From Gammaproteobacteria bacterium (GTDB taxonomy: Bacteria > Pseudomonadota > Gammaproteobacteria > Natronospirales > REEB76), in NCBI GenBank assembly GCA_049591615.1, contig JBAWFD010000101.1, forward strand, positions 22,882-86,881: a DNA stretch of 64,000 nt, in the 5' to 3' direction. A program made the position numbers and the translations under genes. Shown one piece after another: positions 42,878 through 49,117 of this stretch; positions within the stretch are counted from its first letter, which is position 1; every line of letters begins with the position of its first letter. The notes beneath the pieces were generated by a model, which did not search any database, was not told where the DNA came from, and saw only the letters and a list, made by a program, of their open reading frames with translations.

Positions 42878-43294
42878 TTATAAAACCGGACTTTGAGCGT
42901 TCTGAATACTCCAGTTGTATGGCACGGTGTGGATCATCCGGATGGATGCAGGTGATACCAAATATTTCAATAATAAGCGTCTCGCCTGGGGCGACAGGAG
43001 AACCAGCAAAAAGTAAACCAGGTCTTTAGCTGGAGCAGCAAACGCGGAAAAGAATAACACTCCGATTGATGCCAGGCATACGATACAAACAAAGAAAATG
43101 GTTAACCCTAGACTCATCCAGCGCGCCCAGGGCTTGCCTGCGGCTAGTCCCAAGGCTCCCGTCACGAACAGTGCGCATAACAACCAGCCCAAAAGATCAA
43201 ATTTCGTATGCTGATGTGGATGCCAGGTGAAAACTACGGCTACATAGCCGGCCAGTGAAAGACTGGATATCACCACGAGTGTCCGACGATTCAC
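42878..43294 (-). CDS. Hypothetical small integral membrane protein
   Basis: Four hydrophobic segments, GTG start, lower GC (~48% in a sampled line). No motif recognised. Confidence 0.4.
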   Translation of the reverse strand: MNRRTLVVISSLSLAGYVAVVFTWHPHQHTKFDLLGWLLCALFVTGALGLAAGKPWARWMSLGLTIFFVCIVCLASIGVLFFSAFAAPAKDLVYFLLVLLSPQARRLLLKYLVSPASIRMIHTVPYNWSIQNAQSPVL

Positions 43295-44613: not shown

Positions 44614-45051
44614 TTAAGAATTAGGGACGAGCTTCAATATGGCCTCTCTGTCAGTACGGGAACTGGCTTGCCTCGCGGCTTCGTCATGTAGCAGCCAGCA
44701 GTATTCCTTATGTTCCTCGGGATCAAGTTGGACAGCGATGACTGACGGCAAGCATAATGAAAATATGTGCTCGATATTTTCCATCACGTCTGGCGCGAAC
44801 CTGGCGCGCCAGGCAGGATGGATGGGATAGCGATTAACTATGCCGCTGTCGGTAAGGCCTTCATCAACGTCTAATCCAGTTTCTTCACGCACTTCCCGAA
44901 TAGCCGCCTGCCGAGGTGTTTCACCTTGCTCCAGGCTGCCGGTAACTGACTGCCAGAAATCAAGCGGGTCACAGCGACGCAAGCGCAATACTTCTCCATG
45001 ATCGGTGAAAATGACGACCAATACGGAATCGGGGCGCTTGAATTCACTCAT
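44614..45051 (-). CDS. nudB: NUDIX hydrolase, NudB-like (dihydroneopterin triphosphate pyrophosphatase)
   Basis: WQSVTGSLEQGETPRQAAIREVREETGL Nudix box. Normally adjacent to aspS. Confidence 0.75.
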   Translation of the reverse strand: MSEFKRPDSVLVVIFTDHGEVLRLRRCDPLDFWQSVTGSLEQGETPRQAAIREVREETGLDVDEGLTDSGIVNRYPIHPAWRARFAPDVMENIEHIFSLCLPSVIAVQLDPEEHKEYCWLLHDEAARQASSRTDREAILKLVPNS

Positions 45052-45305
45052 AAGCGATTATTAATATGCGCGAATCTTGCCTATTTAATTATAGGCTGAA
45101 TAACCGCATCTGTTGGAAGCAACCTTTTCCCAATCCTTGAATTTTATTCTCAACAGTTTGTTTCCGACAATTGGTATCCGTTAAGCTGACCGCTTGCCAT
45201 GGTAAATAATCCGAAAGTGCAACCGCCATACGAATCAACACAACAAAAAGTTAGGAAACTTGGGGTTATACTCAGTCGTTGCGAGATGCATTCAGGAATA
45301 TTTAA

Positions 45306-46640
45306 ATGAAAGCCATATTTGCGATCATTAGATCACATTCTTTTCTGGTGATCGTATTCCTGTTGCTGGCGCATGCAGTCAATGCCACTCAGGCACATAA
45401 GCACATAATCCTTATGACATACTGGTCTAACGATACAACAAAATATGCGTCTTATCCCATCCCTGGCAGTTTAAATCAAAGTGGAACCCTTCAGCACAAT
45501 GAAGCGCTATTGCAACAATTGAATGCAGTTAATGTCCTTGGCTATGCCTTTTTGCAGGTCGACGGGTCCGGTCATGTATATTTTAGTCGTCCATCTGTTG
45601 ACCTGTCTGAGAGCGACATCACAGGCTTTTGCGTTAAACAGCCTTCAAGTTGTCCACACGTGGTTAACGCATGGTCAGGCAACTTTTCCGCCTTTGCAAG
45701 GCTAGACAACAGGGATCATTCGCTACAAAAGGTAATCTCCATAGGAGGCGCTGGGAGTCAGAAAACCTTTGAAAATGCGATTCACAATCCAGAAACATTC
45801 ATTCAGTCTGCAACCTATCTTATTCATGCATACCACTTGAATGGGATTGATCTCGACTTCGAACCAGATGCGTTTTTTTATTTGCATGAAGGTCAATCAT
45901 ATGCGCAGCTAGTCCTGGACTTAAGGAGAGCGCTTGGCAAGGAAGCATTCATCAGTATTGAGGTGCCCGGCGACTGGGAAACGTTGCGCAGTGTCAATTG
46001 TCCAACCAATAATTCATGTAGTAACAACCTCGGCATTATTGCCGATAATGCTTATGTCTCGCTCATGGGCTTTGACTTTCATGGTCCATATTACCCAGGG
46101 ATGGTTACCAGCAATGACTCGAACCTTTATTGTGATCCAGATGAACCCTTACTTTCAAATTATTATCATGCCAGTGTCAATCAAGCGATCGGATATCTGA
46201 CTTTTAACAAAGTACCAGCCAAAAAGATTATTTTGGGTTTCCCGGCTTATTTCAGGGCCTATGGTGGTGTCGAGGTTGCGCCAGGCAGTTATGGTCTGTA
46301 TCAGCCATTCGATAAATCAAAAACACCAGCTTATGATCTAGGCACGAAGGGAAAAGGCTCTTATCGGGTTGCGAGAAGACTTTTGAAATCGGGATTCACA
46401 CAACATTACCTCCTAGTTAACGACAAGATCAGTGCCGTCTACGCGTATAACGAATCGACTCAGCAATGGATAAGTTACGATGATCAGGTGTCGATTACCT
46501 CTAAAGCTAAGTACGTACTTTCCAGGCGTCTTGCGGGGATGATGATGTGGGAAATTGGGGAAGACATGCCAATTAACAGCCCCACGTCACTTTTACGGAG
46601 CGCACATACCGCTTTATTCAATACGAAGACGGGGCAATAA
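45306..46640 (+). CDS. Secreted glycoside hydrolase family 18 (chitinase-like) protein
   Basis: Signal peptide ...LLLAHAVNA. SIGGAGS and LNGIDLDFE (the DxxDxDxE catalytic motif is retained). GC is low (~45-47% in sampled lines). Confidence 0.75.
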   Translation: MKAIFAIIRSHSFLVIVFLLLAHAVNATQAHKHIILMTYWSNDTTKYASYPIPGSLNQSGTLQHNEALLQQLNAVNVLGYAFLQVDGSGHVYFSRPSVDLSESDITGFCVKQPSSCPHVVNAWSGNFSAFARLDNRDHSLQKVISIGGAGSQKTFENAIHNPETFIQSATYLIHAYHLNGIDLDFEPDAFFYLHEGQSYAQLVLDLRRALGKEAFISIEVPGDWETLRSVNCPTNNSCSNNLGIIADNAYVSLMGFDFHGPYYPGMVTSNDSNLYCDPDEPLLSNYYHASVNQAIGYLTFNKVPAKKIILGFPAYFRAYGGVEVAPGSYGLYQPFDKSKTPAYDLGTKGKGSYRVARRLLKSGFTQHYLLVNDKISAVYAYNESTQQWISYDDQVSITSKAKYVLSRRLAGMMMWEIGEDMPINSPTSLLRSAHTALFNTKTGQ

Positions 46641-46690
46641 TTCTACGTCTTCTATGCCTTTAAACACCTGTGCATCGCTGTTAATTTATT

Positions 46691-47245
46691 TTATGCTAAC
46701 TCCTGCCAATCAAGGATATTGTCTAACGGATGATTCATCACCTTATGCTCAAGAAGCGATTCGCTGATGGCATCTTTTTTGGTTCCAGTCCCGCGCACTG
46801 CTTCGAGGTATACGTTCAGGCTTTTAGTACTGCGTAACACAGTCGCGATCTTCAGATATTCAGGCAATTCAACAGAGCCTTTGAGTTTCAGGATAGCCAC
46901 GCCTTTATTGGAGCTCTTCGCAAAGCCGATCGCATAGGGAATCCACCAGGATTTGCAAGTCTCTTTGCTCACCAAACTCAAGATATGGGTCGAAAGCAGT
47001 ATCCCACGTTCTATGCATTTGGTGACGCGCGCTGGCTCTTTCAGCAATGCATCCATCTCGATGTCGGCATCGGTCTCATCGAAATAAACATCCAGGCCTC
47101 CATGCTCCATGATGTAATTTGCGATCGCATGCACCACGTTCCTGTCGATCTGGAAATGGGATATGTAGATGCAGGATCCGGCATTACCTGCTTTGGCGGC
47201 GAGTGCATGTTGCTCTGTCAGTAATGCTCTATTGCGTCCAGCCAC
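46691..47245 (-). CDS. TIR-like domain protein (orphan)
   Basis: CIYISHFQIDRNVVHAIANYIMEHGGLDVYFDE...ILSLVSKETCKSWWIPYAIGFA follows the bacterial TIR / DUF1863 pattern (FISH..D...L...G..V..D ... S.W...E.G). GTG start preceded by a TAAGGAG SD. Low GC. Confidence 0.45.
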   Translation of the reverse strand: MAGRNRALLTEQHALAAKAGNAGSCIYISHFQIDRNVVHAIANYIMEHGGLDVYFDETDADIEMDALLKEPARVTKCIERGILLSTHILSLVSKETCKSWWIPYAIGFAKSSNKGVAILKLKGSVELPEYLKIATVLRSTKSLNVYLEAVRGTGTKKDAISESLLEHKVMNHPLDNILDWQELA

Positions 47246-47266
47246 ACATCGCTCCTTATGAAATGT

Positions 47267-49051
47267 TTACGGTTCTTTGTGTGCCGGCGGCAAATGCAAG
47301 CAGATATGCAATTCCTTGAGCTCCGCATCATTGACATCCGCGGGCGCGTCAGTGAGCGGATCCCAGGCCGTCTGGGTCTTGGGGAAGGCGATGACCTCGC
47401 GGATGTTGGGGGCGCCGGCCATGTGCATCACCAGCCGGTCCATCCCCAGGGCGATGCCGCCGTGGGGTGGACAACCGGACTTGAGTGCGTCCAGCAGGAA
47501 GCCAAACTTCCTACGCGCCTGCTCATCGCTGATGCCGAGCATGCGGAACACGGCCGACTGCATGTCCTGGTTGTGGATGCGGATGGAGCCGCCACCCAGC
47601 TCGGTGCCGTTCAGCACCAGGTCGTAGGCGCGCGAGCGGATGCCACCCGGGTCCTTCTCCATCGCGGAGACATCATCCACTTTGGGTGAAGTGAACGGAT
47701 GGTGCAGGAAGATCCAGCGCTTGTCCTTCTCGTCCCACTCGAACATGGGGAATTCCACTACCCACAGCGGCGCCCACTCGCCTTGCATCAGGCCTCGGTC
47801 CTGGCCGAGCTTCAGACGCAACGCACCCATCGAGTCGTTCACGATGCGGGCCTTATCGGCACCGAAAAAGATCACGTCGTTGTTGGCAGCGCCGCAGCGC
47901 TTGAGGATGCCTTGCAGGGCGGCATCCGACAGGAACTTGATGATGGGCGACTGCAGACCCTCGCGCCCCTTAGCGAGGTCGTTCACCTTTATATAGGCGA
48001 GACCTTTGGCGCCATAGCGCGCCACAAACGCGGTGCAGTCGTCAATCTCGCTGCGCGGCAGTTCGCCGCCCTTGGGCAGGCGCAGGGCGGCGACCCGGCC
48101 ATCTTTGGCGTTCGCCGGTCCGGCAAACACCTTGAACTCACAATCCTTCACCAGGTCGGCCACGTCCACCAGTTCCAGCCGGATGCGCAGGTCCGGCTTG
48201 TCGGAGCCGTAACGGCGCATGGCTTCGTCGTACGGCATGCGCAAAAACGGATCGGTCAGCTCGACGCCCAGCACTTCCTTGAAGGTGTGCCGGATCATGC
48301 CCTCGGTGATGTCCATGACCTGGCTCTCGTTCAGGAACGAGGTCTCGATGTCGAGCTGGGTAAATTCCGGCTGGCGGTCGGCACGCAGGTCCTCATCGCG
48401 GAAACAGCGCGCGATCTGGTAGTAGCGGTCGAAACCCGACATCATCAGCAACTGTTTGAACAGCTGCGGCGACTGCGGCAGTGCGAAGAACTTGCCGGGA
48501 TGGGTACGGCTCGGCACCAGATAATCGCGCGCGCCTTCCGGCGTGGGCTTGGTGAGGATCGGGGTCTCCACATCGATGAAACCCTGCTGGTCCAGATGGC
48601 GGCGCAGTGCGTTGATGATGCGGTGGCGCAGCCGCAGTCGCTGCTGCATCACCGGCCGGCGCAGATCGATATAACGATACTGGAGCCGGCGCTCTTCGTT
48701 CACATCGTCTTCATCGAGCATGAAGGGCGGGGTTTCGGCACGATTGAGCAATTGCATCTCCTGCGCCAGCACTTCCACCTTACCGCTGGGCAGGTTCGGG
48801 TTTTCCGTGCCCTGGGGGCGGTGGCGGACCTTGCCTTTCACGCTCACCACGAATTCGCTGCGCAGGCGCTCCGCATCGACGAACAGCTCCGCACGCTCCG
48901 GATCGAAAACCACTTGCACCAGGCCTTCCCGGTCGCGCAGATCGACGAAGATCACGCCACCGTGGTCGCGACGCCGGTGTACCCAGCCAGCGATGCGGAT
49001 CTCCTTTTCCAGTAGGGTTTCGTTGACCTGGCCGCAATAGTGAGTACGCAT
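47267..49051 (-). CDS. aspS: Aspartate--tRNA ligase
   Basis: MRTHYCGQV...[19 protein letters not shown]...[18 protein letters not shown]...GGIALGMDR. Start at the second ATG (49051). Confidence 0.95.
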
Positions 49052-49117
49052 GAAAAATTCCTGAGATGACGTTGTCATAAAATCGGGAGAAACTGGGGTC
49101 GAGGCAGGCGCGCGATG

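Follow-up and report, generated by a model that had tools for sequence, protein, structure and literature searches.

In bacterial and plant immunity TIR domains act as enzymes, in animals mostly as adaptors, and the TIRs of animal TLR/MyD88 adaptors and of plant RRS1, which is paired with RPS4, keep the fold without a working catalytic glutamate. Among bacterial proteins, ThsB of type I and type II Thoeris (B. cereus ThsB, 6LHY; EcThsB, 8WCF; 8BTN) is a small single-domain TIR. Type III Thoeris is said to go back to van den Berg et al. 2024. A brief description of it in the preprint of Yirmiya et al. (2025) gives multiple TIR proteins together with a SLOG effector, with signalling uncharacterised. 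The catalytic glutamate has been named as E208 in AbTir, with E85 as its equivalent in ThsB, and both E-to-A substitutions and E85Q abolish the NADase activity and signalling of TIR/ThsB proteins (PMC10022894). Here we describe a solitary gene for a 184-aa TIR protein at positions 46691..47245 (minus strand) of a 64-kb stretch of gammaproteobacterial DNA, referred to below as the window. The protein is of a known kind, a ThsB-type TIR; what is new is that it is a stranded, catalytically relaxed form of such a protein that is under selection.

As the preliminary description of this DNA had stated, the gene begins with GTG and has a strong Shine-Dalgarno sequence, TAAGGAG (47252..47258, minus strand), 6 nt before the start. 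The start codon is correctly assigned, because the N-terminus M-A-G-R-N-R-A-L is conserved among homologues; the whole N-terminal motif, M-A-G-R-N-R-A-L-L (47219..47245, minus strand), is a family-wide feature, and its residues G3 and N5 are 99% conserved in the alignment of the TIR subfamily. The peptides IYISHFQIDRN, GGLDVYFDE and ILSLVSKETCKSWWIPYAIGFA are all found in the 184-aa translation. Taken singly, the sequence does not reach a curated Pfam threshold for the TIR superfamily: TIR_2 (PF13676) matches with E=2.3e-5 and 25.3 bits, under the 28-bit cutoff, and ThsB_TIR (PF08937) with 18.8 bits, under the cutoff of 21.2. Most homologues carry precomputed matches to PF13676 or PF08937, and PADLOC ThsB models match the window protein itself, down to 4.5e-10. 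NCBIfam returned nothing useful for it, and the single PHROGs match was weak and to a family whose function is unknown. A family profile made from 23 homologues (alignment A1) was compared with solved structures and found homologous to experimentally solved TIR domains (8btn, 2.2e-10; 8fz9, 3.6e-5; 7uxr, 1.9e-4; AbTir 7uwg, 1.6e-3; AbTir 8g83, 2.6e-3). Judged from these profile comparisons, the TIR assignment is weak from the single sequence and firm at the level of the family.

The AlphaFold2 model of the window protein, with a predicted local distance difference test (pLDDT) score of 80.8 and a predicted TM-score (pTM) of 0.81, has the flavodoxin-like TIR fold. Foldseek matched it with probability ~1.0 to ThsB (8fz9, 9b7d, 8wcf, 6lhy) and to the TIRs of SPARTA and SpbK, and the RPS4/RRS1 TIR heterodimer is also among the matches. 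The TM-scores to TIRs are moderate (TMq 0.44-0.53, TMt up to 0.6-0.7), and the nucleoside 2'-deoxyribosyltransferase (NDT) fold scores equally well; the top match is MilB CMP N-glycosidase, followed by several NDTs, and the leading matches of this NDT/MilB group include 4ohb (E=1.4e-4) and 7o62 (TMt 0.69-0.72). The earlier view of a TIR/ThsB-like protein is thus supported by the family profile, the PADLOC ThsB models and the fold matches, whereas the structural search by itself finds the TIR fold and the NDT/MilB fold equally well. The flavodoxin-like fold is what the window protein has in common with NDT and with the MilB-BcmB CMP N-glycosidases. These enzymes have a glutamate at the equivalent position, which is absent here, and there is no Pfam NDT match to the window protein at E<=1, nor any other sequence-profile match to this group, so that the likeness is one of fold only; the sequence evidence and the gene neighbourhoods indicate a TIR protein.

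From the secondary structure of the AlphaFold2 model and from the AbTir/7uxr profile alignment, which runs to profile position ~156, the TIR domain proper was placed at about residues 25-152 (46790..47173, minus strand). It comprises strands 25-29, 52-54, 87-92, 115-120 and 135-137 and a last helix 140-151, and it ends at about residue 152-155. The C-terminal ~70 aa, formerly left unassigned, are mostly the end of this domain, and the family-specific tail is limited to the last ~30 aa. This tail carries the motif N-H-P-L-D-N-I-L-D-W (residues 171-180; 46706..46735, minus strand), recognised from alignment A1, its conservation and its pLDDT, and specific to this TIR subfamily. Within the consensus NHPLDxxLDW, H172, L174 and L178 are kept family-wide, and the block is modelled with a pLDDT of ~84.

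The residue at the catalytic position is alanine. In the profile alignments, A105 (codon GCG, 46931..46933, minus strand), which closes the WxxxE-type motif W101-I-P-Y-A105, stands opposite the Glu of 'NYEL' in AbTir and of 'PWELGY' in 8btn, so that the reading of a replaced catalytic glutamate in the preliminary description is borne out. In the family the catalytic column holds Glu in 173 of 178 proteins. Outside the gammaproteobacterial clade to which the window protein belongs, 224 of 225 distinct subfamily sequences have it; the only such member lacking it is P0123, which has Val instead (SKWANFVMGY) within a motif that is divergent as well. The clade itself was sampled with nine close relatives only (66-92% identity), several of them from one sampling site, and at the catalytic site they read A, E, E, A, A, Q, Q, E, A. 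Alanine is encoded by GCG in the window, L004, L101 and L016, glutamine by CAG in L020 and L019, and glutamate by GAG or GAA in L001, L103 and L007. Ala105 is no assembly error, since independent assemblies from four separate lineages all have GCG at this position.

On a neighbour-joining tree built without the catalytic column, the catalytic site takes four parsimony steps, which ties it for the highest value among the 184 sites and places it among the three most variable, against a mean of 0.84. Only this minimum number of changes is claimed and no exact history, because the deep rooted nodes are weakly supported (bootstrap values were unusable). Either Ala is ancestral to the group of clade members linked to the aspartyl-tRNA synthetase gene aspS, in which case a dead enzyme has long persisted and Glu has been regained by reversion, or Glu has been lost several times in parallel. 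The 16 other near-invariant positions of the family (G3, N5, C25, S29, H30, D56, D59, G81, S85, W101, P103, G107, P128, H172, L174 and L178) are all kept in the clade. By analogy with other TIRs, in which E-to-A and E-to-Q substitutions at this position are lethal to activity, the loss of the catalytic Glu makes it very probable that the window protein (E105A) is NADase-dead and produces no signal of the cyclic ADP-ribose type.

The contexts of the relatives indicate what kind of system the protein comes from. A search of 5.8 billion proteins gave 29 relatives, and 151 cluster representatives (E<=1e-30) came from an exhaustive search with a profile. A genome scan added 80 loci to those obtained by look-ups of individual relatives; open reading frames (ORFs) were called in all of these loci and searched with hidden Markov models seeded from cassette neighbours. 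Of the 64 distinct family loci, 56 are compact multi-TIR cassettes with partners within ~5 kb. A SLOG protein and other TIR genes are present in 31 loci, a partner that we call p159 occurs without SLOG in 17, and 8 have extra TIR genes only; the remaining 8 have no partner, and six of these belong to the stranded clade. SLOG occurs in two forms, as a ~650-aa fusion with TIR (Pfam LD_cluster2, E=4e-66) and as a separate protein of ~320 aa paired with a TIR protein of ~395 aa; cassettes with the SLOG layout carry two to five TIR genes. The window protein is 35-47% identical to cassette members over its full length and has the N- and C-terminal motifs in common with them; it is a homologue of a cassette subunit. 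The layout of the relatives agrees with type III Thoeris as it is described in one sentence of a secondary account. The protein had at first been taken for an unclassifiable orphan, a view that does not stand: its subfamily occurs regularly in multi-TIR and SLOG cassettes, which, as far as that short account goes, are type III Thoeris-like, and Glu is near-invariant there.

Two observations on the cassettes may be recorded here. The p159 protein, of ~160-230 aa, lies directly beside TIR genes in 23 of the 64 family cassettes, including the 17 without SLOG (examples are L009:9160-9639, L015:9160-9639 and L027:709-1188, with 20+ further loci in alignment A3). Its invariant residues are T45, R46, S65, F70, R74, L95, N96, R100, P101 and Q132, and searches of Pfam, PADLOC, PHROG and the PDB gave no match to it; it is a candidate for an effector or signal receptor of Thoeris-like type that has so far gone unrecognised. 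The cassette L107, on the Aureispira sp. CCB-E plasmid NZ_CP133672 (49.5-54.8 kb), consists of an annotated nucleoside 2-deoxyribosyltransferase-domain protein and four TIR proteins, among them one 687 aa long and another that belongs to the family. It adjoins an IS4 transposase and lies near Cas6, and represents a mobile, defence-island setting of the ancestral system.

The setting of the window gene is of another kind. Its start lies 21 nt after the stop of aspS (47267..49078, minus strand, identified by its syntenic Pfam domains), on the same strand. A consensus scan of the minus strand found no promoter-like or terminator-like site in this 21-nt gap. Because the gap is so short and has no such site, the TIR gene is probably co-transcribed with aspS in the window while having its own ribosome-binding site. 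On the other side, nudB, for dihydroneopterin triphosphate diphosphatase, forms the conserved downstream flank (44614..45051, minus strand; NCBIfam NF006961, E=7.6e-51, and synteny). Among the 57 ORFs of the window none matched a ThsA, SIR2, Macro or SLOG model, and only the TIR gene matched Thoeris models in PADLOC; the other PADLOC matches in the window concern a few non-Thoeris families only. A tblastn search of the cassette partners against the 64 kb found nothing better than E=0.04, apart from family members matching the TIR gene. The window therefore holds neither the type I/II arrangement of ThsB adjoining a ThsA effector of the SIR2-SLOG or Macro-TM kind, its neighbours being aspS, a chitinase-like gene of family GH18 and nudB, nor the type III-like layout of several TIR genes and SLOG in one operon. 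These results agree with the earlier statement that no Thoeris or CBASS effector is adjacent.

This position is a property of the clade. The TIR gene lies directly downstream of aspS in seven of the nine members (the window, L001, L004, L016, L020, L101 and L103). L007 is at a different locus and likewise partnerless, and the context of L019 is uninformative because its contig is 1.5 kb long. In every lineage in which nudB was located, aspS and nudB flank the TIR gene, and in L103 nudB follows it directly, with the gap empty. No related partner gene was found within the 64 kb of the window or within 20 kb around L004, L007 and L020. A uniform housekeeping setting of the homologues, named in the preliminary description as an outcome that would refute its reading, is thus seen for the close relatives, with their order aspS-TIR-nudB, whereas the distant relatives reside in defence cassettes.

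Compared with the described systems, the window protein resembles ThsB in its size and single-domain build, in that ThsB supplies its best PADLOC models and 8btn its best sequence match among solved structures, and in the recognisable helix of the SxWxxxE type. It differs in having no ThsA nearby, in carrying Ala for Glu and in its own GRNRA and HPLDxxLDW motifs, and its gene is in a housekeeping locus instead of a defence island. Type III Thoeris, so far as the brief description allows the comparison, is the layout in which the Glu-bearing relatives (35-47% identity) sit, whereas the window gene and its clade have no partners and have lost the constraint on Glu.

The substitution pattern speaks against free decay of the gene. 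Within the tight cluster of the clade, the pairwise ratio of nonsynonymous to synonymous substitution rates (dN/dS) is 0.03-0.08 over dS of 0.6-1.8, regardless of whether the copies have E, A or Q (A-A, 0.060 for L004/L101; A-Q, 0.047; E-E, 0.032). Between the window copy and other clade copies it is 0.045-0.083 with dS of ~1-1.8, and the values are comparable to those of aspS in the same genomes, 0.05-0.07. Full-length ORFs are intact in eight of the nine clade copies, and the Shine-Dalgarno sequence is conserved. These substitution patterns indicate that the TIR gene is under strong purifying selection, which extends to the fold, the GRNRA motif, the HPLDxxLDW tail and the other pocket residues. 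The exception is L016:4827-5383 (also L017 and L018), in which the gene is frameshifted around codons 138-143 and the last 47 residues, with 87% identity to the window protein, are encoded in another frame. As the same lesion occurs in three metagenome samples, it is a real pseudogene allele and no sequencing error.

We therefore favour, with a probability of roughly 55%, the reading that the window gene encodes a stranded ThsB-type sensor TIR retained for a non-catalytic function, exerted by binding or assembly. Its ancestor would have been the sensor or signal-producing subunit of a multi-TIR and SLOG antiviral cassette. A single copy would then have been stranded between aspS and nudB in one gammaproteobacterial lineage and inherited as part of the chromosome backbone. 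Catalysis would no longer have been required in the stranded clade, where Glu would have been replaced repeatedly, by Ala in four lineages and by Gln in two, and the role that was kept would be the binding of a protein or ligand, probably through TIR-TIR or tail-mediated assembly. What makes a non-enzymatic function the most likely one is that the rest of the protein is strongly constrained while Glu has been lost. A decoy, a sensor or a non-catalytic TIR, all of which had been considered from the start, is thus a live class of explanation. The protein can be likened to the non-catalytic TIRs of TLR/MyD88 and RRS1, which also have the TIR fold without the Glu and would, like it, presumably serve protein-protein contacts. 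Those TIRs form part of larger receptors or adaptors whose partners are known, whereas the window protein is a bacterial protein of 184 aa that stands by itself; the likeness is a functional analogy, not close homology.

Several points weigh against this interpretation. Three clade members retain Glu, so that catalysis may have kept its importance in part of the clade. Pairwise dN/dS merges the time before and the time after the loss of Glu. In L016-L018 dN/dS is ~0.15, higher than in the rest of the clade, and the raised ratio together with the frameshift suggests that the TIR gene is dispensable at least there. At third codon positions the GC content (GC3) of the clade's TIR genes lies at 0.53-0.59 (0.56 in the window) versus 0.79-0.80 for aspS (0.80 in the window), and with so low a GC3 the gene has not adopted the composition of a highly expressed core gene. 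The absence of partners applies to the 64 kb of the window and to the 20-kb stretches, and a TIR or SLOG partner encoded elsewhere could act in trans.

A bolder form of the proposal, which we regard as rather unlikely, is that a ThsB-derived immune TIR has been domesticated as a core-genome pseudoenzyme that is co-expressed with aspS and selected for binding, or else that E, A and Q form an on/off polymorphism in co-existing populations. Candidate binding targets of such a pseudoenzyme would be NAD+, a signal made by a TIR, or a protein of phage or host origin.

Of the explanations that compete with retention for a non-catalytic role, a Thoeris sensor acting in trans survives best, though we consider it unlikely. 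The protein would then cooperate with an effector from another part of the genome, be it ThsA-like, TIR-SLOG or p159, the Glu alleles being active and the Ala and Gln alleles representing an off-state or a dominant-negative regulatory form. An architecture with several ThsB proteins is the norm in this family, the orphan clade has kept the N- and C-terminal motifs, which possibly mediate assembly, and Glu-bearing and Ala-bearing populations share the metagenome Ga0307372. Yet the window allele has no Glu and would therefore make no signal itself (PMC10022894), the characterised cassettes are all compact, with their partners close by, and the searched stretches around the window gene, L004, L007 and L020 held nothing related.

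Somewhat further down we place the possibility that the gene is a functionless relic, the last piece of a degraded Thoeris-like cassette, with the Glu substitutions as its first lesions. This would account for the disappearance of all cassette partners, for the repeated loss of the catalytic residue and for the frameshifted syntenic lineage with its dN/dS of ~0.15. It is hard to reconcile with the low dN/dS at considerable dS, which is also found between copies that both lack Glu, with eight intact ORFs out of nine and a conserved Shine-Dalgarno sequence, with the preservation of all 16 other near-invariant residues, or with an aspS-nudB position that is held while the adjoining cargo turns over. 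We judge it improbable. That the protein is still an enzyme, a standalone NADase or a nucleotide glycosidase using another residue or chemistry, as do relatives of the NDT/MilB fold, is very improbable, and the early suggestion of a standalone effector with a substitute residue is disfavoured: MilB and several NDTs do head the Foldseek matches, and W101, D56, D59, S29 and H30 are retained, but NDT and MilB also use the equivalent Glu and the top Foldseek entry is itself an E103A mutant, the site drifts between A, Q and E among proteins that are ~92% identical, unlike a catalytic residue, the most variable sites of the clade show no obvious acidic change that would compensate, the sequence profiles point to TIR/ThsB and not to NDT, and E-to-A and E-to-Q are known to kill TIR activity (PMC10022894).

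The remaining features of the locus concern its composition and its cargo. The GC content drops from ~0.62 in aspS to 0.41-0.50 over roughly 45000-47250. The interval between the TIR gene and nudB (45052-46690 in the window) is a hot spot of cargo turnover among closely related genomes. In the window it holds a secreted GH18 chitinase-like gene of low GC (45306..46640, plus strand; Pfam Glyco_hydro_18, E=5e-42; GC3 0.45), convergent with the TIR gene; a multicopper oxidase takes its place in L004, a kdp operon in L020 and L101, Amt and kdp in L001, and other genes in L016. The GH18 gene is lineage-specific cargo of this variable gap and no partner. Of the features that could have marked a site of integration, no tRNA, Rfam family, inverted repeat or integrase was found at the window copy, and the short two-copy direct repeats there are probably chance matches. 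A functional link of the TIR gene with aspS, nudB or GH18 was considered and rejected: the cargo differs by lineage, and aspS and nudB are the flanks wherever nudB was located. An origin as a phage-borne decoy is likewise unsupported, only 2 relatives having been found among 2.9 million viral contigs.

On the aspS side, the spacer before the TIR gene contains a GC-rich palindromic element resembling repetitive extragenic palindromic (REP) sequences, CCCCTCTCCCCTTGTAGGAGAGGG...GGTGAGGGG, at L020:9880-10000 and L103:1270-1372. As some spacers have this element and that of the window is only 21 nt, transcriptional coupling to aspS may differ by lineage. Elsewhere in the window, a predicted membrane protein of 138 aa is encoded at 42878-43294 (minus strand; GC3 0.53), between nadA and a DUF885 gene. 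Its YbjO-like Pfam match is weak (E=0.005), and in the syntenic part of L004, which has nadA and DUF885 side by side, tblastn gave no match to it.

The analysis sets apart a ThsB subfamily that is marked by terminal motifs of its own and whose members pair with SLOG effectors or with the ~160-aa p159. The clade described here bears on the evolutionary question of how an immune TIR that was an enzyme becomes non-catalytic. It offers a natural series of nine relatives that carry Glu, Ala or Gln and are otherwise conserved, with a known ancestral context and with one lineage pseudogenised, and it allows a test of whether a Thoeris sensor stays selectable after losing its partners and its chemistry. 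Should the gene be a slowly decaying relic, the finding would be an ordinary one. If domestication or the on/off polymorphism were true, the clade would provide a bacterial parallel to the transition from enzyme to adaptor in animal TIRs.

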